From positions 88,288,001-88,352,000 of the forward strand of contig NC_086378.1 of the NCBI RefSeq assembly GCF_036588685.1: a stretch of DNA of 64,000 nucleotides, in the 5' to 3' direction. The notes under the pieces were generated by a model. That model was not told where the DNA came from, made no database searches, and saw only the letters and a program-made list of their open reading frames with translations. Made by a program: the position numbers and the translations under genes. Shown piece after piece: positions 11,645 through 55,200 of the stretch. The stretch is from Mytilus trossulus. Taxonomy: Eukaryota. Numbering within the stretch: position 1 is the first letter of the stretch; each line of letters begins with the position of its first letter.

Positions 11645-11850
11645 ATAATTTCTCGCGTCCGGAGCGCTTTTCTGGATTTACCTTCATCAGCAACGCTCAA
11701 AGCCAAACATTTGAAATCCTAGGATGTATAAGCATCGAAACCGTTGGAGAGCTATATGTAAAAAAAAACTAAAATAAATAGCCAAATTCATATAAAGTCA
11801 ACTTTGCCTGAGATGTTGAAACCTTAGTTTCTTAATAATTTCAAAATTTT
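11645..11850 (-). ncRNA. Degenerate minimal hammerhead-ribozyme motif (11654-11697) within a retrozyme/Penelope-associated repeat
   Basis: Minus strand: GCGTTG CTGATGA AGGTAAATCCA GAAA AGCGCT CC GGACGC. The CUGANGA and GAAA core boxes are present; UH has mutated to CC. Confidence 0.5.
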
Positions 11851-12496
11851 AGAAAACATCCACGAATGAGATACACACACAAAAGCAAAAATAAAATAGT
11901 TTACACATTAAAAACACATATAGATAAGTTGAGTAACTAAATGAGCACAAAGCAGCAGAAGCACTATAGTAAAGATAATAAAAAAAAATAGATTTGCCAT
12001 GCTGAAAATAAAGCATGAACAAAAATAAAAGAAATTAAATGTAGGCAAAACATTGGCATGATCTGCCAGACCAAGAATTTATCAAGTTCTCGAATTGATT
12101 TAAAGATGATTGCTTAGCTCATAGCTTAGCACCTGCATACCTTAAAGATTGTATGTCGTATGCATACAGTTGTTCTTATATGTGGTACCGTAGTTCGGCT
12201 GAATTCTGGTATCTGAAAGAGTAAGTGTATTAAATCATGGAGTTAACAGGACGATCTTTATTAATAATTTTGCAATCTTCAATAGCCAATGATCTCAATC
12301 TACTTATTTTTAAAGACGATAATTTTGATTTGAAGAGTAGATCTTCATAACTTGCTGAATAGTCTTCATAGATAAACCCTAGTGCATTCTCTTTTGCTTT
12401 TACAAACAGTTATTCTTATTACTCACAATGGGCTTTCGTATGAATTACAATAGGCATTGCTTCGTTAACAAAAAGGATTTCCTATACATGTATCTC

Positions 12497-13959: not shown

Positions 13960-14265
13960 AAAACAAAACCAGCATATCCTTAATTGGAAATAAAATATGT
14001 TCTATATATAAATCATGTTTTAGTCCCACCCTTTAAGGCATTTAGAGTTTTAACATAGAAGCTAGGGCTATATATATCCTTGGAAAAGACAAAGACAGTG
14101 CCATTCCACAACAAATGGAAGTTTTTAACGACCTTGACTGGCTATACAGCCTTTGCACGGTCGGTACTTATACTCCAATTAACCAGATATCGATTTTATA
14201 CTCTATTTTTCTACCACGGAATTTATCCTTTACCGTCTTTGATCCCACAACAATTAATTTTCATA

Positions 14266-14275
14266 ACTTCCGGAA
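14266..14275. promoter_or_regulatory. Palindromic ETS/GABP-like motif just upstream of the RBBP5 ATG
   Basis: ACTTCCGGAA 11 nt before the start codon. The same ACTTCCGG motif precedes TMEM147 (38314-38321). Confidence 0.45.
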
Positions 14276-14285
14276 AGCGGTCAAA

Positions 14286-23200: not shown

Positions 23201-26200
23201 CTATATCTTTATATTCACTTTGCAGTGTGTGACCAATATTTGAAATACATGTATAATAATAATCCTTTTTTGTAATAATTGTCAAATTAATGTTTTTATT
23301 TCAATCTACAGAACATTATGGAAGAAATGTTGTTTTTCTGGAGATGGAGAGTACATTGTAGCAGGATCAGCCAGACAACATTCTCTGTATATGTGGGAAA
23401 AAAGTGTGGGAAACTTAGTCAAGATATTACATGGAACGAAGGGAGAATTGTTACTGGATGTTGTGGTTTGTATCATCATTTTACTTTTAAATGAAACAAG
23501 AATATTGTGTATTTCTAAAAAACTAAATTGATTTATACACTATTTAAATTAAAACTGATTTACTGCACTGTATCAGTCTAAAAATGGATTGTAGGACAAA
23601 CATGACCATTAAAGACTAACACTCATTAACTCGTGTACTGAATTATTAGTTTATTATTATCTGTTCAGTTCTTCTCCTGAAATAAAGATAACTAGTGTAA
23701 AATAGCAAATAAATAATATTCTAAATTGTAAAAGGTTTTTCCATCTTTATGGTGACACATCTTCCGCCATCTGTGTGCAGAACTAAAGATAAGTTGAAAG
23801 GTATACTGAAATTGTTGCTTTGAGGAATATCATTTTATAAAATTACAGTGTTTGCTTAATTAATAATCCTATATTTAATTTCAGTGGCATCCTGTAAGAC
23901 CTATCATAGCCTCCATATCTAGTGGTCTTGTATCTATATGGGCTCAGAATCAAGTGGTAAATATACATTGTAAATATTAGTTAGGTGGAATGCAAAAATT
24001 TACCACAATATTATTGTTCATGAAATATAATGCCATATAAAACTACAAATCAACTTACAAGAAAAAAACAAACATATTTTTTTATATAATTGTCAAGTTT
24101 TTTATTTTGGGTTTATATCCTTTCTTTTTAGAATTCTTATCTTTGTTTATATGATCCACTTTATAGAAATATGATCACAAGTAGATTATGCTGTATTGTC
24201 ATAAATAGGACAATTAGTTGGGTTTACATATACCAGTGTCCTAGGACTCTGAAGATTTGTAATAAAATGAAAGACAGAAAATTTTCAATAAATGGCAATT
24301 TGTTAAATCTTTTCAAAATGTAGATACCATATTAACATGTTTTGTATGAAAACTGGAGTGCATTTACAACAGATACTCTATAAATATGTATTATAGGAAA
24401 ATTGGAGTGCATTTGCACCAGATTTTAAAGAATTAGATGAAAATGTAGAATATGAAGAAAGAGAATCAGAATTTGATATTGAAGATGAAGACAAAGAAAA
24501 AGAAGAAACAAAAGGTAGTGTAGAATCATTCAGTGTACTAACATACACCAGAAGGAATTTAAATGAGTGAAACAAGTAGAGAGAAGAACATGTAAAGTTG
24601 ACATTTGAGGACTTTTTTCATTTTCACAACAATATTTTCTTACATTATATTTTATAAAGATTACGCTGATGTTAAAAAACAATGTTATACTGCTTTGCAA
24701 TACCTAACCGACATGTTTTAATATGCCAATTCTATTTTATTACATTTAGGAAATGTGTTGAGGAAATTTCATCCTGAAAAAAGAGCTGCTTTTGCACTTT
24801 TGTCCATTTCAATTTTCTAATTGATAATTCTTAAGATTATTTAAATTATGAGTAAAAATAAATACATAAAAACAATTGATAATTTTTATTTATTTTAGGT
24901 CCCTATGATGAGGATATAGAGGTTGATGTAACAGCTATAGAACCTATACAGGCTTTTGTCAGCAGGTAGGAATTAAGATATACCTGTCTTTGAAGCTTTG
25001 TGGCTTCCATCAGCAGTTTTACCGTCACACATCAAGTTTACCTAGTGAAAATATCAGATCATTTAATTTTAGTCGTGATGTCAGTAAAAATTTTCATTCA
25101 ACAAAAGTTCTACAAAATTATGTTTTCTTCTTTTGGTGCCTAAACTTGGTGGTGTCATAGGCATGTTTCAATATCACACAAGGAAACCTTCTGGCTTCTT
25201 GTTTGCCTGAAAATGTAATAAATTTGAGGAAAAAGGGATTTTCGGATGTAAAATGTTGTTTTTTTTAGTTGGACTGTAATAATAAGTGTTGATTTTATTA
25301 CAGTGATGAAGACGATGAGGATGATGATGCCTTGTTATATTTACAAGTAACACCAGAGATAGATGAACCAGAGGAAGGTTGGCCATCTACCACAGATAAT
25401 AATGTAGGTAAAATAACTATTAATACCAAAGCCATTTAGTTTTCACCTTCAACATTGCTTTATTTTGTGATAACAAATTGTTGTTCTATTAAACAAACTA
25501 AATCAATAATTCTGTGTTAGATATAGTGATTGTTTGGGTTTAGTGGTAGTACTTCGCTTTTATTCTTAATATGACCAAATTTTGGCTCAGACTCACAGAA
25601 CAAAATAACTCTCATTAAAGAAGCATTTGAAGAGTCCAAAATTTTATCTAAAACATATAAAGACAATTGGTTGGGAAGCATTTATTCATTATTTTTAAAA
25701 ATATCTTAATTTAACCCCAGAATATTTGTTAAATCACAAATCTCATATAAAGTCAATTATCATTAAAAAACTCCAAATTAAATATGATGAAATTTGGCTT
25801 AACCAACTAAATAATGACAAACCTGGCATGGTGCAAGGAAATAAATTAAGGACCTGTAGACTTTTTAAAAATAATATAGGCCTTGAAAAATATTTATTGC
25901 TAAATAATTGTAAAACATTAAATGAGTTAACCAAATTTAGAATTAGTGCCCATGAACATGAAATAGAAAAGGGAAGACATAAAGGAATACCCCAGATAAA
26001 AGATTTTGTAAATTATGTAATATTAATGACATTGTTTAGGATGAAATTCATTTTCTTCTTCAATTTCCATCACTTAAAACTGAAAGATCCAGTTTCATTT
26101 TAGATTTATCCTCTAAATTTACTAATTTTAAAACTTTAAATGACCAATCTAAATTTCTATGGTTGATGTCAAATGAAGATCCATTTGTTAATAACATAAC

Positions 26201-29200
26201 GATTAAATTAATAGTTTAATTATAAAGACTAGAAGAGTAAAATTTAGTATTAACGCATGAGTAGTCCACAGCTCTTCTTTTAATTATAAAACGGTATTGA
26301 TTGTGTTCACTCGCTCATTATCTTTGAGAATATATACTGTGTTTGTTGTCTCCCTTCTCTTATATAATATAGTTTTAGTTTTATTGTCATGTATTGTAAT
26401 TCCAATGAAAAAAATCACCATAATTATTTGTTCACTTTAATTTAAACTGTAATTGTACTGCTCCACGGGGTGTCTTGATTGACAAATAAAAATTGTTGTT
26501 GTTGTTGTTGTTGTAGAAAGACGTGTGTATATTTCAAACTTGAGATGTTATGCATACAAAGCGTAATAATCATATGACGTTACAATACGTTACGTTAACA
26601 ATAAGAGCTGAATAAGTTATTGTCTCTGTATTGTGGCTAATTTGTTTTGGTGATCATGAGATTGAACCTGTAAAACACTAAACAGATAATAAAACATTTT
26701 AAAATACCTGCCCAAAGGTGTCTTAGGGGCTGTTTGGTCTAATATTTCATCTACAGGAATCAATAGCCTGTCAAAGCTGAGGTTTGTGTGAAACCCTATT
26801 AATGGCAAGGTGTGTATGACTATTAGGTTACCATTTATCCTGCCAGAAGTCTGTGTTGGTCCAACTTCTCTGTCTACCAATAAAACTGATGTCACAATAA
26901 TGTCAATGTTTAAACCCCACTTAAGTTTATATCCAAGTAACTTAAGTGTGGTTAAAAAATGGAACAGACGAACACAAAACTTAACGATGTATAGAAAGTT
27001 TCAAGAAACAAGTCACTATTTATCATTATTGTTTCATGTTAGATTTGTTGGGAACACCACGTTTTGTATACTTTAGAATTATTTTAATGCAAATGTACAA
27101 TTCATTTTATTTCCAACAGGCACCTGAAGATCAAAGTCAGAATGAGAAAAAAAGAGGCCATAGTCAATCAAGTAATGCTCCATCACCGAAAAAGAAAAGA
27201 ACCAAAAGTCAGGAGATATCTATAAATCTACCTAATGCTCCTTCAGAAGGTAAGCTTTATTCCAATACTGAGGGGGGTTGGAGGGGTCCCGATCCTGAAA
27301 TCCTGGGCTTAAAAACATGAAATCCCAAGATCCTGAATTTTAAGAAATGTAAATCCTGACCTTCCAAAAGTCGAAAAAAGAACCCGAGCTTAAAGAACCT
27401 GATCCCGACATTATGAGAAAAGTTCCCCCCCACTCAATACTGATCTGTCATATCTAAGACAAAATTATTTGATTTATGTTTCAAGTTAATTAATTAAAGT
27501 AATCAGACAATTTTCATTTAATATTGAAGATTTTGTAAATATATTTTTTTCCTGTCAGATTTAACAAAGAACATCAATATGTCATACTTTGTATTCATTA
27601 TTATTGGTTGGATTCAAATTTTCATGGATTTTGTGGGTACAGGTAAACCACGAAATAAAATGTTAAAAAAAATGTTATAAAAAATATAACAGATCTGATT
27701 TGTCTACATTATAAGGCATTTTTATTGTTAGAAAAATCCTCTGTAATACATGTAATATAACTGATCATGACTGCTGTATATTACCTCTGATTATTAAATA
27801 ATTTTTTTTAAGGTATAGACAATCTCATAAAATCTACAGATCGTGAGCATCTGAAAAATAGTGAGAATTGATGTTTCTCTAGTTGAGATGTCTAAGATGA
27901 TAATAAGGCTTACTAAAAACAAACTCAGCAATATCTTTACCCAACACTAGAATGTTAAAATACATAAGTCATTTGGGCATGATTCATAGGTTTTAATACA
28001 TAAGTCATGAGGGCATGATTCATAGGTTTAAATACATAAGTCATTTGGGCATGATTCATAGGTTTAAATACATAAGTTATTTGGGCATGATTCATAGGTT
28101 TAAATACATAAGTCATTTGGGCATGATTCATAGGTTTAAATACATAAGTCATTAATACATAAGTCATGAGGGCATGATTCATAGGTTTTAATATATAAGT
28201 CATGAGGGCATGATTCATAGGTTTTAATACATAAGTCATTAGAGCATGATTCACAGGTTTTAATACATAAGTCATTAGGGCATGATTCATAGGTTTAAAT
28301 ACATTAGTCATGAGGGCATGATTCATAGGTTTAAATACATTAGTCATGAGGACATGATTCATAGGTTTAAATACATTAGTCATAAGGGCATGATTCATAG
28401 GTTTTAATACATAAGTCTTGTGGTCATGATTCAAAGTTTAAATACATTAGTCATGAGGGCATGATTCATAGGTTTTAATACATAAGTCATTAGGGCATGA
28501 TTCATAGGTTTAAATACATAAGTCATGAGGACATGATTCATAGGTTTTAATACATAAGTCATGAGGGCATGATTCATAGGTTTAAATACATTAGTCATGA
28601 GGGCATGATTCATAGGTTTAAATACATTAGTCATGAGGGCATGATTCATAGGTTTAAATACATTAGTCATGAGGACATGATTCATAGGTTTAAATACATT
28701 AGTCATGAGGGCATGATTCATAGGTTTAAATACATTAGTCATGAGGACATGATTCATAGGTTTAAATACATTAGTCATGAGGGCATGATTCATAGGTTTA
28801 AATACATTAGTCATGAGGACATGATTCATAGGTTTAAATACATTAGTCATGAGGGCATGATTCATAGGTTTTAATACATAAGTCATTAGGGCATGATTCA
28901 TAGGTTTGGTTGTCAGTTGTAATGTCCTGATTTCTTTATTAATTTTCAGAAATTCATCCATTGCTAAATGTTAAGAAACCAACAGACAAAAACCAGCAGA
29001 AGAAAGTGAGTCGAACAAACAAAGGAAAACCATCAAAGTCTGAGAAATCAAAACACAAATACAGATCAGATGAGGTAAATTTACATAAGTTATTTATTTA
29101 TACACCTGACTATATCATGCTGGGGCTACTGACTTATTCTACAAAGGACACATGGACTACAATGAAATATTATATATTAAATTCAGGGTTTTCATTAGTA

Positions 29201-30258: not shown

Positions 30259-31273
30259 TTTTTATACGCCCGTCAAAATTTTGACGGGACGTATTATGGT
30301 AAACACATTTCCGGTGTCCATCCGTCTGTCCGGCGTAAACATGTCGCACAGTAACTTGAGAACGACTTATCCAAATTTCATGAAACTTAATATAGTTGTT
30401 TCTTATGATGGTCAAATGATCTGTATACTTTTTGGTGAAAATTAGATTTAAACTTTTTGATTTACGGCACTTTGTAACTAAAACAGGGGTGTGGTTTTTT
30501 TCACATGTCACACTGTATCTCAAAAACGATTCTTGATTATGGCTTAAAACTTTAAACACTTCTTATTTATATTAATCTTAATATCTGTATACTTTTAAGT
30601 GATGATTCAAAATTTCATTTTTGAGTTATTGAGTATTTTTTTAAAAAGGGGGATTTTTTTTTTACATGTCCCGCATATCTCAAAATCGATTTATGATTAT
30701 TGCTACAAAGTTTACACATGCCTTTTTTATATTAATCTCAAGATCTGTATACTTTTTGATGATGATTCCAAATTTCATTTTTGAGTGATTGAGTATTTTG
30801 TAAAAAAGGGGGAGGGTTTTTTTTACATGTTGTGCCATATCTCTTTTACAATTTATGATTATTGCTTACAACTTTACACACTTCTTTGTTATATTGATCT
30901 AAAGATCTGTATACTTTTTGGTCATGATTCAAAATTTTATTTTTAAGTTATTGAGTATTTTGTTAAACAGGGGAGGTTTTTTTTACATGTCGCGCCGTAT
31001 CTCTTTTACAATTTATGATTATTGCTTACAACTTTACACACTTCTTTGTTATATTAATCTAAAGATCTGTATACTTTTTGGTTTTGATTCAAAATTTTAT
31101 TTTATTGATATTTAGTTTTTTGTAAAAAAAAAACAGAGTGGGGGTTTTCCCGCCGTGTCTCAAAAACTATATATGGTTATTGCTTTAAACTTTCTCAGAA
31201 ACTATTTATGATTATTGCATATAACTTCCACATAAGACGTCGGGCGTATCATGCGCTCATGGCGCAGCTGTTT
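30259..31273 (+). mobile_element. Helentron-associated (HINE-like) element with ~5 internal ~161-bp tandem repeats
   Basis: T-run start, subTIR atacgcccg / cgggcgtat, 5' hairpin cccgtcaaaattttgacggg, and a 3' small hairpin before a T-run. tctgtatacttt recurs at ~30420, 30584, 30745, 30906 and 31066. Confidence 0.8.
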
Positions 31274-38382: not shown

Positions 38383-41300
38383 ATGACGTTATTCCACTTT
38401 GGAAATTGTTTAGCGCTTGCTTATGTGCCTTATATGATTGTTTACAAGTTTTCAGGATTGTAAGTAAAACTAGCACAAAAGAAGTGTTGCAGTACAGCTG
38501 AGACTACTAATGTGTTCTAGTTGTCTCAGAGTACAGCCAGTATAAGGGGTCTCATTGGGGTGTTCTGACTCCAGATCAAGCTAACTTAGTTGTCAGATTC
38601 CTGTATCCCACTTACACAATGTATTGTAAGTAAGCAATAGACAACTTTCGAGTTCAATGCATTTCTAATCTTCAATCTTTGTCGTGATGACAGAGTATAC
38701 TCTCTTGTAAAATAAGATTTGCATTTCCCTCAAAAACTCTGGTTTTAGTGAACGTCATTTGTGTGTTTAGGGGCATCGTCACTCCCATTCTAATGTTGAG
38801 CGAGTGGTTGGAAACTATATTTCTGTATTGTACGAATTATTCCTCAAATTGAATTCTCAAAATTGACAATCAGCACTGCTTTCATTAGGGAATTTTCATT
38901 AAGAACCTACAGAACAACAATTATTTCTAGTTTATCCTGCACAATGGCGATCACGAAGACGCTTGATGAACGTTCATAGTGCAGGGATACAGGCGACTCC
39001 CTCTATCAGGTAAATGACGTCATAAAGGCACATATAATTGATGATTTTTTTCCAGTGAGGGATGAACTCGAAAGTGGTCTATTCTCATATTTTGGTAATT
39101 TCCTGAGTCCCGCTAGACTTCATTTACAATTTTTACAACACAATAATTTGTCTTTCACGTGTCACACTTACAAAAATCGTCAATCCTGCATCACGTCTAG
39201 GCGTTATGTATGTACATTCTTTACCTAAATTTTGTCTGTATAGTGTTTTTTCCAGGCTGATAATGAGGCTGTGGGGTTCACGCTGCGGCACCGCAGCGCC
39301 TTCATAATAATGCAGATCCTGCAGCATCTTAATTGGCCGTTTTCCCTTAATTCTTGATCCGGCAGTGTGTTAATTTTCACATTTTCATTTTGTATGTTGG
39401 TTAAAATTGTCAATTGCTGATCACCGCTGAGAGGTCTTTCAGTGTTACGCAATAACTGATAATTATTTTTACCTGAGCCTCTTATCTCAGCATTATCAGA
39501 CTATGTTATCATGTAAAAGCGTTAATGATCATCAAGATATTTAACAAATTATTAAAAACTTCAGTGCAGATATTGAAGAAATAGACAGCAAATACTTTAC
39601 ACATTGTCTGTAAGATCACTGGACCATTTAAATAACGAGTTTGTTCATTGGTCATGAAAAAGAATCTATTTAACAGTGTTTTCCATTCCGCATTCAAGCC
39701 TGGTCTGCCGACCACCTAAAAGGCTTTCCATTTAAGGAGGTGGTAAGCTTTTTTTTTCGGTTGCAAAACGTAAGAATTTAAATACATGTACTAATCGCGC
39801 CTCGCAGTTTGTTTTCATTGACAAAAATGGGGGATCGTCAAATTTCAATGTTTTCTTTTATAAATGGGGGGAATGGAAAGGCAGTTGACAATTGATAAGG
39901 AAAATTCTAAGCCATATAAGTCAACTAAAAAGGATAGTTGAATTGAAATTGTTGAAATAAAAAAAAAAGTAACTAAACAACAGAAAAGGCACACAGGCGA
40001 TCGCGAAGATAAACAGGTTGGGAACGATCCCAAAATGAGGGATATTCCTTAAATGAGGGACTGTCCATCAGGCAAGGGGTCATATTACTGTTTAAGAAAA
40101 AAAAGAAAAACTTAGATTTATTAGCATAAAAGGGGGGAAATCGTTTTATTTGGTACAACTTTTCTAAATGAGCGTCCATAATGATAAAAAGGCCAGAAAC
40201 AAATATGTCCTCATTTGTTTCTCTTTAAATGTACCCTACATAAAAGGGATAGTCATTACATGGAGAGGTAACCCCTCATCTGTTTCTCTTTAAATGTACC
40301 CCTCATTAAAGGGATAGTCATTACATTGAGAGATTACCCCTCATTTGAGGGTTGGTGATAAATATGAACAGGACTTTAAATGGATAATCGTCACAGAAGG
40401 ATATTACTGTTCTCTGTGCCAAAAATATAGCACTAAAGCGAGGAACATGACAGAAACTTCAATGGTTCTATAGGCCATGCATTAGCAGACTTCTTGGAGG
40501 AGGGAGTCCTGCGAAAGCCATTATGATCTGCTATCCCAGATGCACAAAACTAATTTGTCAAATCATTTAAAGAATTTAATGAAAGGCTAGCAGTGATAGC
40601 AGAAAAATGGTTCAATTCCATTAAATGTGAATACAATACTTATCCTTCTATTTGTGACCCCAACCCACAGTAAAACTGAAAAAAATAAACCCGCTTGAAA
40701 ATGTTAAAAAAAATCACCCGGTTGCCAAATCCAGCTAAGGTAATCTATGCCTGAGGTAAAAAAGCCTTAGTATTTAAAAAATTCTAAATTTTGTAAACAA
40801 ATAATTTATGAATATAACCATATCAATGATAATTCATGTCAGCACAAAAAGTGCTGACTACTGGGCTTGTGATACCCTTAGGTAAATAAATCTCCACCAG
40901 CAGTGGCATCGACCCAGTGGTAGTAAATAAACTCATCATAGATACCAGGACTAAATTTTGTATATAAGCCAGACACACGTTTCGTCTACAAAAGACTCAT
41001 CAGTCTTCAAATTGATAATAAAAATATCTTTATAATTAATTCCCCAACTTTTATTCAGAAAAATATAATGTTTTTTGGTATATACATGTACATCTAGAAA
41101 AATTTATCTAATAATAGACCACTTTCGAGTTCATCCGTCACCGGAAAAAACTCGTCAATTATACGCGCCTTTATCACCATCATTTGTGCGTTTAGGGGCG
41201 TCGTCACTTCCATTCAATGTTGAGCGAGTGGTTGTAAAACTATAATTCTATATTGTACGAATTATTCGGCAAATTGAATTCTCAAAATTGACAATCAACA

Positions 41301-44300
41301 CTGCTGTCATTAGGGAATTGTCAGTAAGTACCTACAGAGCAACCATTATTTCTAGTTTATCCTGCACAAAGACGATCACTAAGACGCTTGTTGAACGTAA
41401 ATAGTGCAGGGATACAGGCGACCCCCTCTATCTGGTAAATGACGTCATAAAGGCGTGCATAATTGAAGAGTTTTTGCCGGTGAAGGATGAACTCGATAGT
41501 GGTCTATTCAACTGGAATTTGAATAACAATTGGGTGTGAACTCAATTAGGGGGCGAGCGTGTGATGTGTGAATGTATAGGGTGTGAACTCAATTAGGGGG
41601 CGAGCGTGTGATGTGTGAATGTATAGGGTGCGAATGAGAAGTGATACCTTCACTCAAACCACATTCTTATCAAAGAACTATTTAAAATGAAATTGTTATT
41701 GTGCTCCTTCCTATACTTTTTTAAAACTGATAAATACATAATTTATATATGTCTCACCATCATGACAAACGAGACCAGACATTTCTTTCTTCCAGATAAA
41801 TTAGAAGTTATCAATTTTGAGTTCGCTAGAAGATTTTATAAAAATAATAAAAAAAAATCTACTGTGTATCATTTTGTAATATTCCTTTACTTGCATTTTT
41901 TGTTGTCCCATGATGTTAAAAAAAAAAAAAAAATATTTTGAAAATGGATCTATTTATTCTCTTAAAGTCTGTTTGTTATTTAAAAAATAATAAAACACTT
42001 TTAAATGATATTTTACAAAATATTAATCCATGAAATAGTGTCTCAATGCATCTGGATGATCTCCCTTTAACCAGTGACAGTCAAATTCAAAATTGTCTAT
42101 CTATCAAAAAGACCAAATTTCATATTGAAAATTGTCCTACTCAATTAACAGTTATTTACGAAAAATAATTGTACGTCAAACATATTGACATAGAAGCACT
42201 CTACTTTTAGCGCAGTGAATATACTTTTTCAGTAGGTGAATGTGCTTTTATTCAAATTTTTTAAATTTTACGTCTTTAATTTATGTTGTGGTAATTTGAT
42301 CTTTATAAAAACACACAAATGTGTAAGCTCTATTAAGAATAACCCCATGCCAAATATTGTTGCACATGGAATTTTTATCACATATTATTATTGTTATCCT
42401 CATTTTGCATGTTTTGATCACATTAGGGATACTACAAATGTGCCTCAATGAAAATTTTCTCAGAATTATAAGGATGTTCCTGTATAAAAGAACACTGAAA
42501 CATGCTGAACAAAATATATACTGAAGTATTTACACATCCTACTTTCAAATTTTCAGATCTTTATTTCCATGTGCAGGTGGTAGTATATATATAAAAAAAT
42601 ACCAATTTTTGTACACATATTCAAATGCCTATTTTATGTTCATTTCAGAGCCGAATATGGAGCATTCTGGAAGTGTGTACAGGCTGGAGGAACCTACCTG
42701 TTTACACAGTTATGCAAGATGTTAATTTTGGCGACATTTTTCCCTGCCACTGAAGTATCAACAGGCTTGGATGTTGTTGGGGTAAGTACAACTTTGACAG
42801 AATATTCCAGGACGTTGTTTGAATTAAGTAGTACATCCACAAAAGTATTGACAGGACTAAGTATAAGAGAAACAGTCACAGTACATGTATCTCTACATGC
42901 TTGTATGTTGTATGAACCTGACTGATACATTTCACAAGCACAAAGAATTTTAGATATAGCACTTTTTACTGTGAAAGAAATAATTTCTTCTTGGCTGAAA
43001 CTAAAGTATTTAGATTTCATGGTCTTCTCTAATAATGGAATTTAGTGCATTTTTATGTACCAAACAAAATTAAAAAAAAATTGTGTTAATTATGGAACCA
43101 GAAATTTAAAACACCACACAATTTAAGTACTTACTATCACAGTATGTGTTCCTTCTCTTTAAAAAAGGGAACACTGCTTTCTCTTATTCTTTATACTGTG
43201 GATTCATTTATTTTTCAGGGATTAAAAAAAATTGCATGATCTTGAATACTTAATTTCATGGTTTTTATACCACAGTCTACATACAATCCTATTCATTGAA
43301 CCTTGATTTCGTGGTTCACCTGTATCCATGAAATACACAAAAATTAGGATCCAAATAATAATAAATCAACAGTAATTAGTCGATTTTTTGTTGATTTTGT
43401 ATGTATTGGTGAACTTATGCAATGGTCAAATCTATATTCAGCTTTCTCAGATCATCTATCAAACTTTGTCATCTTATAATTTTTTTCCCTGAAAACCTAC
43501 ACATTATCCATGCATTATTTGTGAAAGTTATTTTGTTTGAAATTTTGTTAAATTACACATTGTTACAGTACAGATGAATAATATAAAAAAGAAGATGTGA
43601 TATGATTGCCAATGAGACAACTATCCACAAAAGACCAAAATGACACAAACATAAACAATTATAGGTCACCGTACGGCCTTCAACAATGAGCAAATCCCAT
43701 ACCACATAGTCAGCTATAAAAGGCCCAGATAAGACAATGTAAAACAATTCAAACAAGAAAACTATGTTCTCTGCAAAATGTGTATATGTACAAAACAAGG
43801 CCTTTTTAAAGTATTTACCAAGCATAATTTTACAGTTCAACTCATTCCTTTATTCCACACTTGATCACATACTGGGTGTGTTTGGATATCTATAGGTAAC
43901 ATATAGACAGAAAATAAGTAAACCTTGGTTAAAATGTAGACAATCCACGGGCTACCCATAGGTTTTGCTTTAGAACATGTTGGTACCTATGGTTTGCAAA
44001 GCAATTCCAAAAGATTTTTTATCACCTGTGGCTATTAAAATTAAATTTAATGATGAATTTGACTCAAATGGAACTCAATGTCATGGCATAACTCTCTACC
44101 ATTCATATGAAAAATGCACAGCAGATATTGTTTTTTTTGACAACAAAAACAATTTACCGTATAAGTACACAAACAACACATAGAAAATTAAAGACTAAGC
44201 AACCCAACCCCCACCAAAAACTGGAGATGATCTTAAGTGCTCCGAAAGGGAAAGCAGATCCTGTTCAACATGTGCCACCCATTGTGCAGTTCATATTAGT

Positions 44301-47300
44301 GTAAACCCAGTATTAAGACTAATTGGGTAAGTTTCTACCATGTTTGTGACTAATAATTTCATTTAACCATACTCTTAAATATGGGTAGGAATGGCAACCT
44401 ATAGTAAGTAAATGAAAAAAAACTGTGGGTAAACCCTAGGCACAAAAGGTCATCCATGGTCAGATTTATTTCTCGAAATAACTAACCATAGGTACCTAGA
44501 GCTACATATAGGTAACCATAGAACGCATTTGGCGTATATCCAAACACACCCATATATATTGCAGTATCAATCTTATATGATATGTACATATAAGGTGATA
44601 TCTTAATCATTATATTAAATATCTTTGTGAAATGTCTTCTAAATCTTAAGATTATTTTTTTCTGTAGGAATTCATGAAGTCAACAGTAGATTTTGCAGAC
44701 TTAGTTGGTATATATTTTGTAATGTCTAAAATAGCAGGAAAAGGACAGCTTAAATTTATGGTGGCAGGTCTGGGATGGGCAACGGCAGAACTCTTAGTTA
44801 CAAGGTAATAAGAAAAAATTGTTAAGTTGAGCACCTGCAGAACTCTTGATAATAAGAAAACAATGTACATGTACATAATGTTCTTAAAAAGGGGGTGTTT
44901 ACAGACAAGCTTTATAATCATAAAATTTCTTAGTCATGATATTTACAAAGATGAATGCTTCAAGCATATTTTTTTTACAATTTAAAAAAAATTGAAATAT
45001 ACATTCTCCTTTTCAATGTAGTTCTTCATATTTTTACTTTTTAACTGGATTTTTGTGACAAAAATGTCCGTTATTGATTTGGGGATGTACGGCAGGCAGG
45101 CGGGCTGGCGACAATCAAATGTTGTCCGTGCATTAACTCATGAACCGTTCAACCAAAGCTTTTAAAATTTTAATATGCTGTTACTGACAATTCAATGAAG
45201 GTCAAGTTCAATAATGGCCATTTTCACTTTTATTGTTCAGGAGTTATGGTTCTTGAAAGATTGAAAAATGGAGTTTCTAGTCTTGTCCGTGCATTTACGC
45301 ATGAACTGTCCTACCAAAGCTTCCCAAAATTTAATATATTGTTACTAATAACAAAATGGACGTCATGTTTAATAATGACGATTTTGACTTTTACTGTTCA
45401 GGAGTTATGCTTCTTAAAAGATTGAAAAATGGTGTTTCCAGTCGTGTCTGTGCATTTTCTCATGAACCATTTAACCAAAGCTTTTGAAATTTTTATATGT
45501 TGTTACAGATGACAAAATAGAGGTCAAGTTTAATAATGATGATTTTGACTTTTACCGTTCAGGAGTTATGGTTCTTGAAAGATCGTAAAATGGCGTTTCC
45601 ATTAACGTTGTTGCATTTACTCATGAACCATTCAATCTAATCTTTTCAAATTTTAATATGTTGATACTGACTAAAAAATGGAGTTCAAATTTGATATTGA
45701 CGATTTTCACTTTCACCATTCATCAGTAATGGTTCTTGTGATATTGCCAGAACACAAATAAATGTTATTAAATCCGTTTTGCTGTCATTGTGACAGCCTC
45801 TTGTTTTGTATATCCCCTGCTGCCAAAAACTTTTTATATATAAAGGCATCACCATATCTGTCTATCCACACATGTTTGTGCACACAATCACCCCTAGTAA
45901 ACAGCTGGTCAGATGTTGAGGAAACTTTACACAGTTGTAGAAAACTACCTTATGATGTGCCAAAAGGAATATTATCTTGGTCTAAACATGTTAAAGGGGA
46001 GATAATCCTGGTCTAACATGTTAAAGGGGAGATAATCCTGGTCTTACATGTTAAAGGGGAGATAATCCTGGTCTAACATGTTAAAGGGGAGATAATAAGA
46101 TTCATATCTGTAATATTTTTTGAAGCGCTTAAAAAAAATTGTGGCATATTTCATTTTGTGTATCACATTTTAATCAAAAATAGTATTTCCCCGAAAAGGT
46201 AATTACATTATAAACATATTTCAGAATATTACCTTTATGGGTTGGTGCCAGAGGAGTAGAGTTTGACTGGAAATATATACAGATGTGTTTTGAATCTAAT
46301 ATTAATTTGGTAAGTATGGAAAGTCTTGCTCACATAGATTTTGATACGTGGTGCATAGCAGGGCATAAAAAAATATATATATATCTTGTTGCATTTAAGC
46401 ACTTAAAAAAGTCTGAACTTGACCTGATCTTTATGGTTCAATGGTCAACATTAACTTGATAAAGGTTTCGTAATTAGATATGTTTCTCAGATGCTATAAG
46501 CAATAGGCTAATTATATTTGGTGAATAGTATGATTGTAAGTTGTAAATGTCTGTCTTGGTTATACTTGAAAATATTAAGCTGATATTGGATAACTTAGTA
46601 TAAAACATAATGATGACCTATGCATCACAATTATGTAAGCTCCTTTTAATTTTTTATAAAATTCTGATATGACATAAAGAGGTAATGGAAATTCTTTTTT
46701 TGAAATTGCGATGGGCATATCATGCTCTCATGATGCAGCTTTTTATTTGCATTTTGTTCTGGTTCACTCGGGTTGATGAACTTGCTGCAAAAGAGGCAGG
46801 GACATTTTTGTTGTACTAGAATGTCTAGCTTACATAAGGATTAAAAGCTTTAAGAAAACTGACAATAATTGCTCTCTTCTTTCCCAAAGATTTTTACTTT
46901 TTACAGTACTTGTATTTCTAAACATTGTTAATAATAAATACATAATTTATCTACAGGGACATCATATGTGTTTGGCTATGTTAGTATGGTTATACAGTAG
47001 AAATGACCTTCAAAAGACATATGTTCCTATAGTGATGACCTTGTTAGCACTAAGTTGCTACAGACCACTTATTGTAGAGTAAGTATTCTAAATGGTTCAA
47101 TGGGATGACGTATTAAAGATAAGCTTTTATTGCAAAGTGTAAAATTACAAAATATAAAATCCAGAAATACATCAATAACCTGAACTCAATTGAATGACCA
47201 AAATATTTTCTGAACATATTTTTTTCAAGCCTTATAAAATCCCAAGTTGTTTGGCAAATATGAATCTTTCCAGACCAGATGAATTCATTTATTTCCGTGG

Positions 47301-49845
47301 GTTCCAACTTTCGTGAATTAAGGACAATTTAGAATTTTTTGAAATACTAAGGCTTTTATACCTCAGGCATAGATTACCTTAGCTGAATTTGGCAACACTT
47401 TTAGGAATTTTGGTCCTCAAAGCTCTTCAACTTCATACTTTATTTGGCCTTTTTAACTTTTTGGAATCAAGCGTCACTGATGAGTCTTATGTAGACAAAA
47501 CGCGGGTCTGACATACATCAGGGTTTTAGCTAGGATTTTGAGGGCTTTAGTCACTTTTGCGCGTGATAAAAATCAGCCTTATTTTTTTATAAAGCAAGGG
47601 ATCTAGGATGTTTATCAAACTAGCTATACATATATGTCCAAGTCCTTCAAGGACTAGTCTAGGATCTTTGAAGACTTTAGGATTACTAATGTAGGCAGTT
47701 ATTGGCCATATTGAATGAATTGACTGATGTGATGCTAAGATATGAAGATCAGAACAGGAATCTGGTAATATGGTCAAAACTTCACTTCAGTTATTTTCAG
47801 GGCACACCCCTTATCAACAAAAGTTGGGTGCCTTTTTTTTTTATCCACTGCACAAATGAACTTGTAACGACTTTTTCACTTCACAATCAATTATATCCTT
47901 GAAAATACGTTTTGATATCTATTTGGAATCAATTTCTTTAATATTGGATAGCAGGATCTGCATCTATACTTAATGTGACGATTCTAATGACTGTAGACTG
48001 TAGATCACGTTTACTTTCGATCTTAAAACGAAATGAAATGAAAACGGGAAGTGACAATTGATTAATAATTTCAGAATAAAACCGGATTCATCTACGAACT
48101 TTTACGCATGCGCAATGCATAGAACAGGAAGCACCTGTTTGCAAGTGAAAATATTTTCGTTTTGAATAAAGTTCATTCTTTTTAAACGAAGTTGTCGAAA
48201 GTTTTTGATGAATATTTATATGAAGTATGACGAAAATACGTTGAAATGACGAAACTACGACAAGAAAACTGCAAATTATGATCGTAAGGGAAATATTGAA
48301 ATTAAAATAAAGTTGAAATGTCCGGGAAGTTTATCAATTTTGTTCAAATGACGAAAATACGACTGAACTGTGAGAAATGATTTAAATGAAATGCTGACTG
48401 ACTGATTTATCTTAAATAGATTATCATGATGGTCATTTATGAGGTTTTATAATGATAATTAAGGGATTAGTGACCCTTCTGATTGGCGATAAGCGGATTA
48501 CTTGTCATCACAACTTTTAACACCTTTGGTTAACGTTAATTACCTGAGGGTCATAAACTTGTCACAAACATAAAGACAGGTAGAATGATCACTTTCCAAA
48601 TTTAAGTGACGAAATTGATATGAAATATTTTCGTCATTTCGAAAACCTTTTCGTAAAATACGAAAGTGACGAGCGCTAGCTAAATCACTGCATACATACA
48701 AATTTTAGTTCTGATATCTATGATGAGTTTATTTACATGTTCGTGGATATATAATTTTGTGGATTTGCTGAAGTATGCTTACAAGCCTATAGGAAATTTT
48801 CTATTCTATGAACATTTTATTGCGTGGTTCCCATATACCCACAAAATCCAATGAAAATTGGTATCCATTGAATAATAGTGAATCTACAGTATTTGAGATA
48901 TATGTTATAAATATCACAACAAAAATTTATTAGGAAAAAAATCATGTCCTTAGGTCTTCCTTTAATTTATCCTTGCAAAACATTTTATTTTTGTACAGTT
49001 GTTATATTAGAAAATATTTGACTGTGGTCCAAGTGTTTGTTGAATATAACAACTGATCAGTGATTTGGAAGTTGTCCAAAACATTGTAGGAAATTAGAAT
49101 GAGATTTAGGACAGATACTTAACTAACGTGTATGGATCTATCAACGGTAGCCAGATACCTGTTTTTGTTTACTACATGTAATGATACATGTATGTGTATA
49201 TGTTCAGGTGTTTTGATTGGCTGATGAAATAAGGACAAGACCACGGATATAAGATTTGAATTTCCTTCACCTCTTAATCAAGCTGATCCTTTACCTTACA
49301 ACTTAGAATTGTTTGTTTACTTTATAACACAATTCAGGAAATCATGCTGTATGTTTGTTTGAGTCTCCAGCTAATGAGATCATTATCATTATAAATTGGC
49401 AGCTGGTTTAAGGAAGTGATATACCATCTTCCTATTAAGACTACTAAGTGGTATTGTAATTCAGAACATAGATATATGTTTTTTTCTCATGTTTTTCACA
49501 CTAAGGTTCACTGTTGTTTTTTGTTTTTTTTATCAATTTATGCAATAGGAAGTTAGAAGCAACAAAAACAACTTGCCTTGTAAATCTTGTTTGTATGTTG
49601 AACTTTCATAATTACATTCATGTATGTGGCTCAATTACAATGATACATACATTTGATAATTTCTATATTTTCAGTATACAATGATATGATGCATGTTTTT
49701 ATTTTTCAGAATTTTAATCCATGCAGTTGGCCTAGGATCATGGACATTATTAGCAGCCAAAGCTTTATTTACAACAACAGTTGGGGTGATTGGACTTCAG
49801 ATATTCCTAACAATGACTGTACAGACATCTAATAACCATTACTAA
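38383..49845 (+). CDS. TMEM147: Transmembrane protein 147 (BOS complex subunit, ER multipass translocon), 229 aa
   Basis: Exons 38383-38459, 42649-42781, 44668-44804, 46225-46309, 46957-47078, 49710-49845 (GT-AG, phases consistent, 690 nt). [14 protein letters not shown]...[13 protein letters not shown]...[14 protein letters not shown]...[19 protein letters not shown]. Confidence 0.97.
38639..39080. mobile_element. MITE with AT flanks, copy 1 (left subterminal region diverged)
   Basis: TIR agac(a/c)actttcgagttca / tgaactcgaaagtggtct; the body aligns with 41116-41505. Confidence 0.8.
40721..41004 (-). ncRNA. Retrozyme-like repeat beginning with a type I minimal hammerhead ribozyme (41004-40966)
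   Basis: Minus strand: A CTGATGA GTCT TTTGT AGAC GAAA CGTGTG TC^TGGCT. The catalytic core boxes are intact; the stem I 5' strand is truncated. Confidence 0.7.
41116..41505. mobile_element. MITE with AT flanks, copy 2 (390 bp, long imperfect TIRs)
   Basis: agaccactttcgagttcatcc.tcaccgg / ccggtgaaggatgaactcgatagtggtct. Confidence 0.88.
41533..41630. repeat. Two-copy ~46-bp tandem duplication
   Basis: gggtgtgaactcaattagggggcgagcgtgtgatgtgtgaatgtata x2. Confidence 0.8.
45040..45808 (+). mobile_element. HINE-like element with ~4 internal ~160-bp tandem repeats, in TMEM147 intron 3
   Basis: aactggattt...aaatccgtt subTIRs, (GGCA/GGCG)n microsatellite, repeat anchors at ~45181, 45341, 45502 and 45664, and a 3' hairpin gctgtca..tgacagc before a T-run. 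Confidence 0.75.
45984..46096. repeat. 30-bp tandem repeat (~3.7 copies)
   Basis: aacatgttaaaggggagataatcctggtct. Confidence 0.9.
47326..47518 (+). ncRNA. Retrozyme-like repeat ending in a hammerhead motif (47471-47512, G12>A); resumes at 48698-48737 after an insertion
   Basis: GCGTCA CTGATGA GTCT TATGT AGAC aAAA CGCGGG TC^TGAC. Stem I GTCA/TGAC and stem II GTCT/AGAC. The body matches the 40721-41004 copy. Confidence 0.7.
47519..48690. mobile_element. 1.17-kb non-autonomous DNA transposon with CAG termini and a 7-bp TSD
   Basis: TIR cagggttttagctag / ctagctaaatcactg; TSD catacat at 47512-47518 and 48691-48697; repeated subterminal tgacgaaa motifs. Confidence 0.8.
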
Positions 49846-49997: not shown

Positions 49998-52224
49998 CTT
50001 AAACAATAGACCAAAACTATAAACACACCCTATTACTGGTTATCGGTATTGGAGATTTAACACAGTATAAAATCAGCTATACCCTGTTGCAAAATCCATT
50101 GTATTGCAATGGCAGTCAGAAAAGCAAACATGAATCTGCTGTACATAATAGTATGAATAATTGTAGTAAATACAAAGGAAAAATTGCAACATCTGTTTTT
50201 CATATGATTAGGCACGATATAAAAACATGTTTTTGAACATATGAAAACATGGAAAACACATATGAAAACATCATAACACATATGTTACAATTTTTCCTAT
50301 GTAGCAATGGGAACACATATCCTATTATATCTGCCATACCAATGGACAGTAATACGGTTGGGTAGTAAATGTGTTATCCTATTTTCTTATGAACGTTTTT
50401 ATTTTGATTTGTCAGTCTGGTAGTTTTATTAAATTGACAATTGCTGAACCTTATTAAATGGTCTTGTAAAACTATGGTCGGGAGAAATCTAGAATATTGT
50501 TTGAAATAAGCTGTTTTACCTGACCAATATCAATCTCGGTATTTAATCATTGTTAAAATAGCTCTAGATGACCATACATGATTGTGTAAATGTTAGAGAG
50601 ATAGTGACTTAGTGTTGCAGTATAAATGAAGAATTCAGATTTTAGTTTTTTAGGAAATGTGCTTTTCACTAAACATTCTAAAGTATCCTAAGTTCTGTTG
50701 TGTGTGATATATTTTATCTATTGTTTTTATTGTAAATCATTTTATATATAAACTTTTCGTTGATGAATGAAATTTCATACTACAATCATGTCATCATAAA
50801 GTATATTGTACCGTTAATTTAGGTAGTGGTGCTTGCATTTATTGTGTCGCCTGGCTGCATCCATATCACACTGTTTATTTATAACTTTGTAAAAACAACT
50901 GGACAGTATTTAATCAAACATGCTCAGATTATTCTGCTAGGCATGAAGTTTTGCACAGCCTATTTTGCTTTTGAACTGAGTGATCTTTTGGGGTTTCACA
51001 TACTAAAACAGGAAATTAATCATTTTTGCTTGTATTATCTGTCCAGCAGCACACATCTTCATGGAACACTCATGCATTTTTGACACTTAATACTGCATAT
51101 TTTATTACATTATGTTACATATTTGAAATATTAAAATAAATAGGAAGAAAAGTGAACTTGACCTGAATTTACAAATTATATTTTATTCTAAATGGAGTTC
51201 ACACACTCAGTAGTTATGGTGATTCTGTTCAGATAATGATTTATAAATCTTTATACAAACCAAATATAGGAAAATATTTAGCTTCACTTCTCCCTTCCTC
51301 AATATTCTGTAAATTATTATTTTAAAACACTGCCATTCCCATGATATTGTTTCAAAAATTTTAAATCATTTCATTTATATTTGACATTTAGTGTTACACT
51401 TGGTTTGCCTGGTCTGTGAACATGTAAAATCTTTGTCCTTTTTCACTACAACTAGTGAATAATTTGTTTGTATAGCTATGTTATTTAAAGAAAATAATGT
51501 GTCACTTATGTTAGAAATTGTGCATTTATATATAGTATTGTATTCTATTCAGAATAAAAATTAAGAATTTTAACATTTTTATTCATTTTTGTCAAGCCTG
51601 CAGAAAGCTTGACACAGGGAAAGTGATCCAGCAGCAGCGTAAGCTAACTTCTTAAAAGCTTTATATGTTCAATGAATAAAAAAATTTCTATAGGCTTGTA
51701 TGTAGACTTATGCAAAACCATAAAATTAAATATCTATGAACATGTAAGTTTTCCTTAATCCACGAAAATTGGTACCCACTAAAATAAATGAATCCACAGT
51801 ATATGCAGTAGGTCAACTGTATTTGGTGTATGGAAATATTTTATGATCTATATGCCATTCCCACAGGTTTTATTTGACCTTGACCTCATTTTTACAGTTC
51901 ATTGCTCATTGTAAAGATTTGGTGTTTTGGTCAGATTTTATTAAACAATAAGCTAAAGGTCAACTGTATTAGATGTATGGAAGAATTGTAAGCTGTACAT
52001 GTCTGCCTGGCATGGTTTTTCTGACCTTTACCTTATTTTCATGGGTTATTGGTTCATGTTTAGTCTTCTGGTAAAGTCTTGTTTTTTAGAAACCATAAGC
52101 AATAGGTCAACTATATTTAGTGTATTTAATCATGATTATAAGGTGTACATGTATTTCTTGTCTGGTTTATATGACATTGACCTCATTTTCTTGGATCATG
52201 TTTAAGTTAATGTTATACTTACAT

Positions 52225-55200
52225 AGTCTGGTCATTGACCTTGAAAGTCTGGTCCTAGTGTTCTAACTAACCATGAAAAGTTTGGTCATAGTGTTCTTGT
52301 TAACCTGAAAAGTGTGGTCATTGTGTGCTAACCTGGAAGGTCTGGTCATAGTGTTCCTGTTAACCTGGAAAGTTTAGTCTTAGTGTTCTTGCTAACATGG
52401 ATAGTCTGGTCATATAGTGTTCCTGCTAAACTGGAACGTCTGGTCTTAGTGTTCTTGCTAACCTAGAAGGTCTGGTCATAGTGTTCTTGCTAACCAGGAA
52501 AGTTTTGTCGTCGTGTTCTTGCTAACATGGAAAGTCTGGTCATAGTGTTCTTGCTAATCTGGAAGGTCTTTTCATAGTGTTCTTGCTAACCTAGAAGGTC
52601 TGGTCATAGTGTTCTTGCTAACCTGGAAAGTTTAGTCTTAGTGTTCTTGCTAACATGGAAAGTCTGGTCATAGTGTTCTTGCTAATCTGGAAGGTCTTTT
52701 CATAGTGTTCTTACTAAACTAGAAGGGTTGGTCATTGTGTTCTTGCTAACCTGGAAAGTGTGGTCATAGTGTTCTTGCTAACCTGTAAGGTCTGGCCATA
52801 GTGTTCTTGCTAAACTAGAAGATTTGGTCATAGTGTTCTTGCTAACCTGGAAAGTGTGGTCATAGTGTTCCTGCTAACCTGTAAGGTCTGGTCACAGTGT
52901 TCTTGCTAAACTAGAAGGTATGGTCATAGTGTTCTTGCTAAACTAAAAGGTTTGGTCATAGTGTACTTGCTAACCTGGTAAGTGGTCATAGTGTTCTATC
53001 TAACCTGTAAGGTCTGGTCATAGTGTTCTTGCTAAACTAGAAGGTATGGTCATTGTGTTCTTGCTAACCTAAAAGGTCTGGTCATAGTGTTCTTGCTAAC
53101 CTGGATAGTCTGGTCATAGTGTTCCTGCTAACCTAGAAAGTTTGGTCATTGTGTTTTTGCTAACCTGGAACATCTGGTAAAAGTGTTAGCGCTATATAAC
53201 CAAGTTTAATCCACCTTGTCTACATTTGAAAATGCCTGTAGCAAGTCACGAATATGACAGTTCTTGTCCATTCGTTTTTTATGCATTTTGTTATTTGATG
53301 TTGCCATGTGATTATGGATTTTCCGAAATGATTTTCCCCTAAGTTCAGTATTTATGTGATTTTACTTTTTGCTAACCGGAATGTCTGGTCAGTGTTCTTG
53401 CTAACCTGAAAAGTCTGGTCAAAGTGTTGTTGCTAACATAGAAAGTGTGGTTGTTGTGTTCTTACTAACCAGGAAAGTCTGGTCATAGTGTTCTTGCCTA
53501 CCATGGAAAATTTGGTCATAGTGTTCTTGCTAACCATGGAAAGTATGGTCATTGTGTTCTTGCGAACCATGGAAAGTTTGGTCATAGTGTTCTTGCTAAC
53601 CGTGGAAAGTCTGTTCATTGTGTTCTTGTTAACATGGAAAGTCTGGTCATTGTGTTCTTGCTAACATGTAAAGTCTGGTCATAGTGTTCTTGCTAACCTG
53701 GATAGTCTGGTCATAGTGTCCTTGCTAACCTGGAAAGTCTCGTCATAGTGTCCTTGCTAACCATGGAAAGTCTCGTCATAGTGATCTTGCTAACTGGAAA
53801 GTCTATTCATAGTGTTCTTGTTAACCTGGAAATTCTGGTCATAGTGTTCTTGCTACCCTGAATAGTCTGGTCATATTGTCCTTGCTAACCTGGAAAGTCT
53901 GGTCATTGTGTTCTTGCTACCCTGGATAGTCTAGTCATAGTGTCCTTGCTAACTTGGAAAGTCTGGTCATAGTGTTCTTGCTAACCTGGAAAGTCTGGTC
54001 ATAGTGCCCTTGCTAACCTGGAAAGTCTGGTCATAGTGTTCTTGCTACCCTGGATAGTCTAGTCATAGTGTCCTTGCTAACTTTGAAAGTCTGGTCATAG
54101 TGTTCTTGCTAACCATGGAAAGTTTGGTCATAGTGTTCTTGTTAACCATGGAAAGTCTGGTCATTGTGTTCTTGCGAACCATGGAAAGTTTGGGTAAAGT
54201 GATATGTCTAACCTGGATGGTCTGATCATAGTGTTCTTGCTAACCGTGGAAAGTCTGGTCATTATGTTCTTGCTTTCATGGAAAATTTGGTAACAGTGTT
54301 CTTGCTAACATGTAAAGTGTGGTCATAGTGTTCTTGCTAACATAGAAAGTGTGGTTATTGTGTTCTTGCTAACCTTGAAAGTCTGGTCATAGTGTTCTTG
54401 CTAACCATGTAAAGTCTGGTCATTGTGTTGTTGCGAACCATGGAAAGTTTGATCATAGTTTTCTTGCTAACCTGGATAGTTTGGTCATAGTGTTCTTGCC
54501 AAATGTGGAAAGTCTGATCATTGTGTTCTTGCTAACATGGAAAGTTTGGTAATAGTGTTCTTGCTTACCTGAAAAGTTTGGTAATAGTGTTTTTGCTAAC
54601 ATGGAAAGTTTGGTAATAGTGTTTTTGCTAACATGGAAAGTGTGGTCATTGTGTTCTTGCTGACCTGGTAAGTCTGGTCATAGTGTTCTTGCTTACATGA
54701 ATCTGGTCATAGTGTTCTTGCTAACATGAAAAGTGTGGTCATTGTGTTCTTGTTAACCTGGACATTCTGGTCATAGTGTTTTTGCTAACCGTGGAAAGTC
54801 TGGTCATTGTGTTCCTGCTAACCTGGATAGTCTGGTCATTGTGTTCTTGCTAACCTGGAAGGTCTTGTCATAGTGTTATTGTCAACCGGAAAGTGTGGTC
54901 ATAGCGTTCTTACTCACCGTGGAAAGTCTTGTCATAGTGTTCTTGTTAACTGGAATATCTGTTCATAGTGTTCTTGCTTACCTGGAAAGTCTGGTCATAG
55001 TGTTCTTGCTAAACATGAAAAGTGGGGTCATTGTGTTTTTGCTAATCTGGAACTTGTGGTCATAGTGTTCTTGCTAACTGGAATATCTGGTCATAGTGTT
55101 CTTGTTTTCTGGAATATCTGGTCATAGTGTTTTTGATAACTGGAATATCTGGTCATAGTGTTCTTGATAACCTAGAAGGTCTGGTCATAGTGTTCTTGCC

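Follow-up and report, generated by a model that had tools for sequence, protein, structure and literature searches.

Probable retrozyme fragments in two TMEM147 introns of a mussel and a recurrent 3' end among copies of their family

The mussel retrozyme family and its circles are already known (published 2020, PMC7229834). As reported there for Mytilus galloprovincialis, the non-LTR retrozyme measures 350-390 bp, carries a type I hammerhead and gives rise to circRNAs seen by northern blot; the genome holds ~5,000 hammerheads of two families, and one retrozyme copy self-cleaves in vitro with a kobs of ~0.1/min. A lizard Penelope-like element (PLE) studied in vitro initiates internally, downstream of its hammerhead, on AT-rich targets and with uncleaved RNA (PMC11167929). 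How animal retrozymes return to DNA is treated in the cited papers as hypothetical; if copying began at a fixed site past the cut, the genome would carry a footprint of both the template and the class of enzyme. The locus described here is ordinary, consisting of two decayed fragments among thousands of the family, and its one useful lead is a 3' end that related copies have in common.

The window, that is, the whole 64-kb stretch of DNA that was analyzed, contains the gene TMEM147 on the plus strand (38383..49845), whose six spliced exons (coding parts 38383-38459, 42649-42781, 44668-44804, 46225-46309, 46957-47078 and 49710-49845) give an uninterrupted frame. The spliced product is identical to P0003 in 218/225 residues and matches Pfam PF09767, and the best named match of the exon 2 peptide is TMEM147 of Mytilus coruscus (93%). 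According to this exon model, copy A of the repeat lies antisense in intron 1 and copy B lies sense in intron 5; the coordinates, the common blocks and the exon model all agree with the first-pass annotation, which had placed two permuted hammerhead repeats in TMEM147 introns.

Three blocks are common to the two copies, one of 71 nt (95.8% identity, E 9e-27), a hammerhead block of 43 nt (83.7%) and a downstream block of 47 nt (89.4%), and their order is permuted. The cut-to-cut length of 251 + 112 = 363 nt bears out the monomer of ~363 nt proposed at first, as do a natural head-to-tail array found elsewhere, L004 (period 355, ~2.4 units, cores 355 nt apart), and contigs that join position 47462 to 41004, the upstream segment of B to the hammerhead of A, in 4/4 runs (21, 15, 4 and 4 contigs). 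Tandem or permuted copies had been expected, and both arrangements are seen, the tandem one at the level of the family, while A and B each stand as a solo fragment. The period of L004 falls within the 150-450 bp of the short tandem repeats that characterize metazoan non-LTR retrozymes. The unit assembled from A and B is identical to the 355-nt L004 unit in 301/369 columns (82%), is non-coding, shows no LTR arrangement and has a GC content of 35-39%. Circular folding gave a z of -2.6 for the assembled unit and -0.5 for the L004 unit (60 shuffles each) and is uninformative. With the tandem, the junction contigs and the match to published Mytilus features (PMC7229834) supporting the retrozyme identity given earlier, A and B are very probably incomplete and damaged members of a single high-copy repeat with a type I hammerhead. 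That repeat is most likely the non-LTR retrozyme published for Mytilus, and the two copies are predicted to sit in the TMEM147 introns as inactive passengers.

Summed contig depth in DNA run X1 (~512,000-572,000 against 75) corresponds to some 7,000 copies, an estimate good to an order of magnitude only, as summed depth is not itself a copy number; it is of a magnitude similar to the ~5,000 hammerheads of M. galloprovincialis. The repeat and its unit junction are also present in RNA run X19, in contigs only, which cannot show circles; that run X15 is RNA is no more than a guess. Relative to X1, the depth in X19 is ~0.8 per thousand for the retrozyme (at 40810) and 0.9, 1.5 and 13.6 per thousand for non-ribozyme repeats at 41391, 44204 and 45540, respectively, so that by contig depth, a poor measure, X19 gives no sign of retrozyme enrichment relative to other repeats.

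Pattern scans for the repeat returned 0, 0 and 0 loci from viral contigs, 0, 1, 0 and 3 from GTDB genomes and 12 from metagenomes. Among these 16 loci, 11 hold the repeat, while L002, L003, L013, L015 and L016 were dropped as chance matches of 20-22 nt. Most outside copies lie on short metagenome contigs, and some of their flanks look microbial, hence their junctions may be chimeric; only L005 has flanks that match other repeats of the window. Rfam at the gathering threshold gave 0 matches in the 64-kb window, and neither A nor B scores as Hammerhead_1 (RF00163) at E<=1, whereas 4/4 motifs in L004, L006 and L009 match that family at 25-33 bits, just below its gathering score of 34. The intact relatives (33 bits, E 1e-5) resemble RF00163 in the core, the 4-bp stem II and the short stem III with a palindromic loop. 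Three motif strings of the repeat had no match in literature text.

Copy A is a 284-nt fragment on the minus strand (40721..41004), 81% identical to L004 and 92% identical over 85 nt to L001. Its core begins with C3 at 41003, its cleavage site falls after 40972 and its core letters are kept, G12 included. The copy starts 1 nt before C3, however, and stem I lacks its 5' arm: 2/6 positions of stem I pair, compared to 4-6/6 in the outside copies with both arms complete (n=10), and folding with stems II and III forced still gave no stem I. The hammerhead of A is thus predicted to be inactive for want of stem I. Two CpG>TpG changes occur in its stem III loop, no target duplication was seen in its flanks, and its 3' end lies off the common end point, likely as the result of a later truncation.

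Copy B, on the plus strand, does begin at 47326 as first annotated, but it is not contiguous: its left part (47326..47518; 89% identical to L010 over 185 nt) is separated from its right part (48691..48736) by a 1,172-bp insertion at 47519..48690. This non-coding, MITE-like DNA-transposon insertion (no strand assigned; longest stop-free frame 80 aa) has 15-bp imperfect terminal inverted repeats, in which 13/15 terminal bases are inverted, is bounded by a 7-bp duplication, CATACAT, at 47512-47518 and 48691-48697, and sits 10 nt past the cleavage site of B. It is multi-copy, with a summed contig depth in X1 of 7,075-15,815 compared to ~75 at single-copy sites. In B the core has C3 at 47477 and cleavage would fall after 47508; stems I-III are kept, stem I consisting of four pairs, a mismatch and a GU, and G12 is replaced by A at 47497, which confirms the earlier reading that B carries G12>A where A keeps G12. 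In a full-length hammerhead, G12A lowers the cleavage rate by a factor of about a million (PMC2553840), and the ribozyme of B is also predicted to be inactive.

The right part of B ends 49 nt past the cleavage site, an end point common to six outside copies. Copy B as a whole splits an unrelated host repeat on the plus strand (left half 47280..47331, right half 48732-48815), of which an uninterrupted relative lies at 51662-51800 on the minus strand; contigs of the host-repeat family without the B insertion are also found. Both junctions of B with the host repeat have the short AT-rich word ATTTA in common, which may be a 5-nt target duplication, a reading confounded by microhomology; metazoan non-LTR retrozymes that have a target duplication have one of more than 4 bp. 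No empty allele of A, B or the MITE-like insertion occurs among the joints listed (15 of 1,473). A third copy, C (11645..11854, minus strand; nhmmer E 4e-6), is a diverged relative with a different hammerhead and was absent from the first-pass annotation; its core lies at 11690, stem I opens with a mismatched pair, and C occupies position 16.1 of the triplet. It is also damaged, and two hammerhead families are present in the 64-kb window.

The first-pass annotation had taken the sense copy as disabled and the antisense copy as intact, as if selection against self-cleavage of the pre-mRNA had fixed G12>A in B while an active ribozyme could persist in A. Copy B is indeed sense, its change is one expected to abolish cleavage, and its stems indicate that its ancestor could have cut the pre-mRNA; Xenopus retrozymes are also reported to be depleted from introns after size correction, with 42-44% of copies intronic, in a preprint whose accessible text has no strand analysis (10.64898/2026.07.22.740005). 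This account is nevertheless unlikely. Since A is predicted to be inactive as well, by truncation, the contrast between sense and antisense is gone and the pair says nothing about selection. The G12>A change affects a CpG and is found again in L008, core-altering changes occur in 5/12 outside copies, and at 4-8% divergence the chance of at least one change among 12 core positions is 39-63%, with a single informative copy (n=1). CpG transitions are in excess in A and B pooled (13/40 against 17/143 other C/G sites, p=0.0035) and in A alone (9/24 against 7/83, p=0.001), the reference in this long comparison being another subfamily; the excess is not significant in B alone (4/16 against 10/60, p=0.48) or in the hammerhead rows of all 14 copies (12/134 against 9/158, p=0.36). 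Ordinary CpG decay, in a gene body that is methylated, likely accounts for the change in B. Evidence of a strand bias among intronic copies would be valuable, but the A/B pair cannot supply it.

More can be drawn from the ends of the copies, as 7 of the 11 copies whose 3' junction is defined have their ends within a 7-nt span, 40-52 nt past the cleavage site. In simulations, such clustering has a chance of 0.002 if ends fall uniformly within 60 nt and of 0.0001 if they do so within 100 nt, for a sample that is small, selected for an intact hammerhead and partly drawn from possibly chimeric contigs. The count leaves out L004 (a tandem that reaches the contig end) and L007 and L011 (contig ends) and takes L005 as two copies; the four that end elsewhere are A, L008, L010 and L012. 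The common end is present in both subfamilies (three copies of one and four of the other) with unrelated flanks, and the 5' ends vary, which together is the pattern of target-primed insertion. Against a Penelope-type start count the letters that the 3' junction of B has in common with its target, as the lizard PLE initiates with no such homology. The clustered end likely marks where copying into DNA starts.

The proposal that the copying of mussel retrozymes into DNA always starts internally at one site, 40-52 nt past the cut, a signature of Penelope reverse transcriptase, and that its template is a circle or a multimer left uncut, never a cut linear monomer, has in our estimate about an even chance of being correct. 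Tandem transcripts cut themselves and become ligated into circles (PMC7229834); a Penelope-type reverse transcriptase would then likely prime on nicked AT-rich DNA, and reverse transcription would likely begin at the fixed internal site. Because copying would run backwards through the cut site, it would need a circle or an uncut multimer as template. The enzyme would often stop early, leaving sub-monomer copies such as B, in which the transposon insertion came later than that of the retrozyme. If true, thousands of genomic ends make the proposed model of Penelope mobilization directly testable and point to the partner element.

A fixed 3' end is equally a trait of PLEs, whose terminal repeats (pLTRs) are reported to carry type I hammerheads (PMC4209133), and Xenopus retrozymes are described as related to pLTRs (10.64898/2026.07.22.740005). 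Copies A and B could accordingly be solo pLTR remnants of an autonomous Penelope-like element with no independent retrozyme cycle, which is quite unlikely: the 2.4 head-to-tail units of L004 follow each other with no ORF between them (the longest stop-free frame has 91 aa), no autonomous Penelope-like ORF (RT and GIY-YIG between pLTRs) was found in the unit or in tandem L004, and the unit length is that of the published circRNA. Spread at the DNA level with no RNA intermediate (satellite-like dispersal, recombination or carriage by a DNA transposon), the common end being that of an old truncated ancestor or an AT-rich breakpoint, would suit the tandem arrays, the atypical end of A without target duplication and the junctions of B, which can be read as a 5-nt duplication or as joins by microhomology, but is very improbable given a common end in both subfamilies amid unrelated flanks and variable 5' ends, and a copy B that interrupts an otherwise intact repeat.

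In comparing the repeat to known systems, it is closest to the M. galloprovincialis retrozyme (Cervera & de la Pena 2020, PMC7229834), with which it shares the mussel host, the type I hammerhead, the two families and the unit length, as well as tandem copies, GC under 50% and thousands of copies as reported there. The window copies differ in being sub-monomer and damaged, and the likeness described here is one of features, the cloned circRNAs themselves being deposited as MN642551-MN642576. The main text of that paper, as far as it was available, has no analysis of copy ends or intronic orientation, and the literature searched, which took in only a minority of subscription journals, yielded no report on where mussel retrozyme copies end or on any strand bias among them. 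The vertebrate non-LTR retrozymes (bioRxiv 10.64898/2026.07.22.740005) likewise occur as solo, dimer and multimer copies and are proposed to be non-autonomous PLE derivatives; the accessible part of that preprint has no molluscs among its listed taxa and no strand-resolved or copy-end analysis. For the mode of insertion the nearest parallel is PAc of Anolis, a Penelope/Poseidon PLE (Frangieh et al. 2024, PMC11167929), which is autonomous and has two start sites ~85-92 nt past the cut with no target homology, where the mussel repeat shows a single cluster at 40-52 nt, may involve microhomology and lacks an ORF; in both, the hammerhead lies upstream of an internal copy end, fixed in PAc and probably so in the mussel repeat, the target is AT-rich and copying passes, or in the mussel repeat would pass, through an uncut hammerhead site.

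Six exons with GT-AG ends splice into an open frame that matches Pfam PF09767, and the protein shares 97% identity with a TMEM147 homologue of 229 aa; the exon 2 peptide gave 58 hits among 91 candidates, the best named one being TMEM147 of Mytilus coruscus (93%). As the first-pass annotation proposed, two hammerhead-carrying repeats lie in introns of this gene: copy A (41004-40721, minus strand, cleavage site after 40972) in intron 1, antisense, and copy B (plus strand, from 47326, cleavage site after 47508) in intron 5, sense. They hold three common blocks in permuted order (a first of 71 nt at 95.8% identity, a 43-nt hammerhead block at 83.7%, and a downstream one of 47 nt at 89.4%), and together give a unit of 363 nt from cut to cut, bearing out the earlier estimate of about 360 nt. 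Elsewhere in the window, the translations of exons at 14290-29100 (plus) and 2007-2432 (minus) resemble RBBP5 and a tetraspanin.

Pattern scans returned 16 outside loci, 11 of which carry the repeat; the other five were chance matches and were set aside. At one locus, L004, natural units stand head to tail with 355 nt from core to core, and one of them is identical to the A+B unit at 301 of 369 columns. The upstream segment of B is joined to the hammerhead of A in contigs of all four runs (4/4), thus the permutation reflects how the unit is naturally arranged. The unit reconstruction is right and, at family level, already published. Rfam Hammerhead_1 matched all four motifs in L004, L006 and L009, and neither A nor B. 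Two positions in A have summed contig depths of 512,000-572,000 in DNA run X1, versus about 75 at single-copy sites, crudely about 7,000 copies, the depth ratio not being a true copy number. A third copy, C (11645-11854, minus), has an upstream segment homologous to A and B and a different, second-family hammerhead with a mismatched first stem I pair, weak stem II, damaged core and C at position 16.1, which breaches the NUH rule.

The claim that the sense copy is disabled while the antisense copy stays intact fails at this locus. G12A slows a full-length hammerhead about a million-fold, according to PMC2553840, and is predicted to kill the ribozyme of B. Copy A is predicted to be dead too, so there is no sense/antisense contrast: it begins one base before core C3, pairs at 2/6 stem I positions, forms no stem I in the fold even with stems II and III forced, and has its core buried in a hairpin in the predicted free fold. 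Selection may account for G12>A in B, and the accessible part of a 2026 preprint, in which no strand analysis was seen, describes intronic depletion of retrozymes in Xenopus; however, G12 forms part of a CpG, the identical change recurs in L008, core changes occur in 5/12 outside copies (G8 twice, G12, A15.1, U16.1) found with a pattern biased toward intact cores, and divergence of 4-8% would alter the core with a probability of 39-63%. Copy A has an excess of transitions at CpG sites (9/24 vs 7/83, p=0.001), as do A and B taken together (p=0.0035); the excess is not significant in B alone (p=0.48) or when the hammerhead rows of all copies are compared (p=0.36). Over 42782-47079 the observed/expected ratio of CpG is 0.32, as would fit methylation of the gene body. 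Neutral decay is sufficient to explain the core change in B.

A MITE-like insertion of 1,172 bp (47519-48690) splits copy B 10 nt past the cleavage site. It has 15-bp imperfect inverted ends, a 7-bp duplication, termini beginning CAG, repeated TGACGAAA motifs, undepleted CpG (observed/expected 1.08) and, from depth, about 100-200 copies; the duplication would suggest the P superfamily, and the ends would also be compatible with hAT. B itself sits within another repeat, which has an empty relative at 51662-51800, and the ATTTA common to both junctions may be target duplication or microhomology. The mid-copy repeat at 40330-40720 adjoins the 3' end of A and may have truncated it; its frames hold fragments resembling a decayed zinc-finger or transposase gene. 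About 100 nt from A lies another high-copy element, which has 65-nt inverted ends (41110-41508); the intron also holds part of a second copy (38812-39084). Satellite arrays occupy 45123-45744 (period about 161 nt; intron 3), 30479-31144 (about 160 nt), 52300-55170 (about 32 nt), 27800-29000 (about 36 nt) and 1-1180 (about 44 nt).

Spliced TMEM147 exons are present in contigs of RNA run X19, as are the retrozyme repeat and its unit junction; the intron 3 array is also well covered. By contig depth no enrichment of the retrozyme repeat over non-ribozyme repeats was seen, and no circle was shown in the contigs, which alone were examined.

The 5' ends of copies are variable, and seven copies (B, L001, L005 and its inverted second copy, L006, L009, L014) end at +40 to +52 from the cleavage site, no more than 3 nt to either side of a single aligned motif, and do so in both subfamilies. 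A (+249), L010 (+9), L012 (+25) and L008 (further downstream) end elsewhere; L004, L007 and L011 reach contig ends and were left out. By simulation, 7/11 ends would fall within 7 nt with a chance of 0.002 if spread evenly across 60 nt, or 0.0001 across 100 nt, for a sample (n=11) chosen for hammerheads, partly from low-coverage, possibly chimeric metagenome contigs. In L005 the two copies belong to different subfamilies, point in opposite directions and lie about 800 nt from each other, and each ends at the common point. Retrozyme pieces in L007, L008, L010, L012 and L014 are joined to microbial-looking sequence or (L014) lie inside a cyanobacterial MAG, and are probably chimeric or mis-binned host DNA. 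A cut linear monomer as template would be expected to leave ends at the cut site; the clustered copies extend past it and would thus have been copied from a circle or an uncut multimer.

According to Frangieh et al. (PMC11167929), the Penelope-like protein of a lizard nicks AT-rich DNA and begins copying within its RNA, downstream of the hammerhead, with uncut RNA as the main template; by analogy, we infer that the mussel 3' ends may parallel this copying. No partner element for the mussel repeat was found in this analysis, and the fixed position of the 3' end offers a lead of modest weight, open to testing. Related literature includes PMC7761336, PMC8557442, PMC10886601, PMC4209133 and preprint 10.1101/721605. 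Cervera and de la Pena (PMC7229834) report that M. galloprovincialis has about 5,000 type I hammerheads, which fall into two families and lie within repeats of 350-390 bp that yield abundant circRNAs and self-cleave at about 0.1/min. The proposed retrozyme-like identity is upheld by the L004 tandem, the Rfam matches in relatives and this published description; A and B are very probably decayed fragments of the known mussel retrozyme, whose description they match in host, unit length, GC, copy number and the presence of two families.
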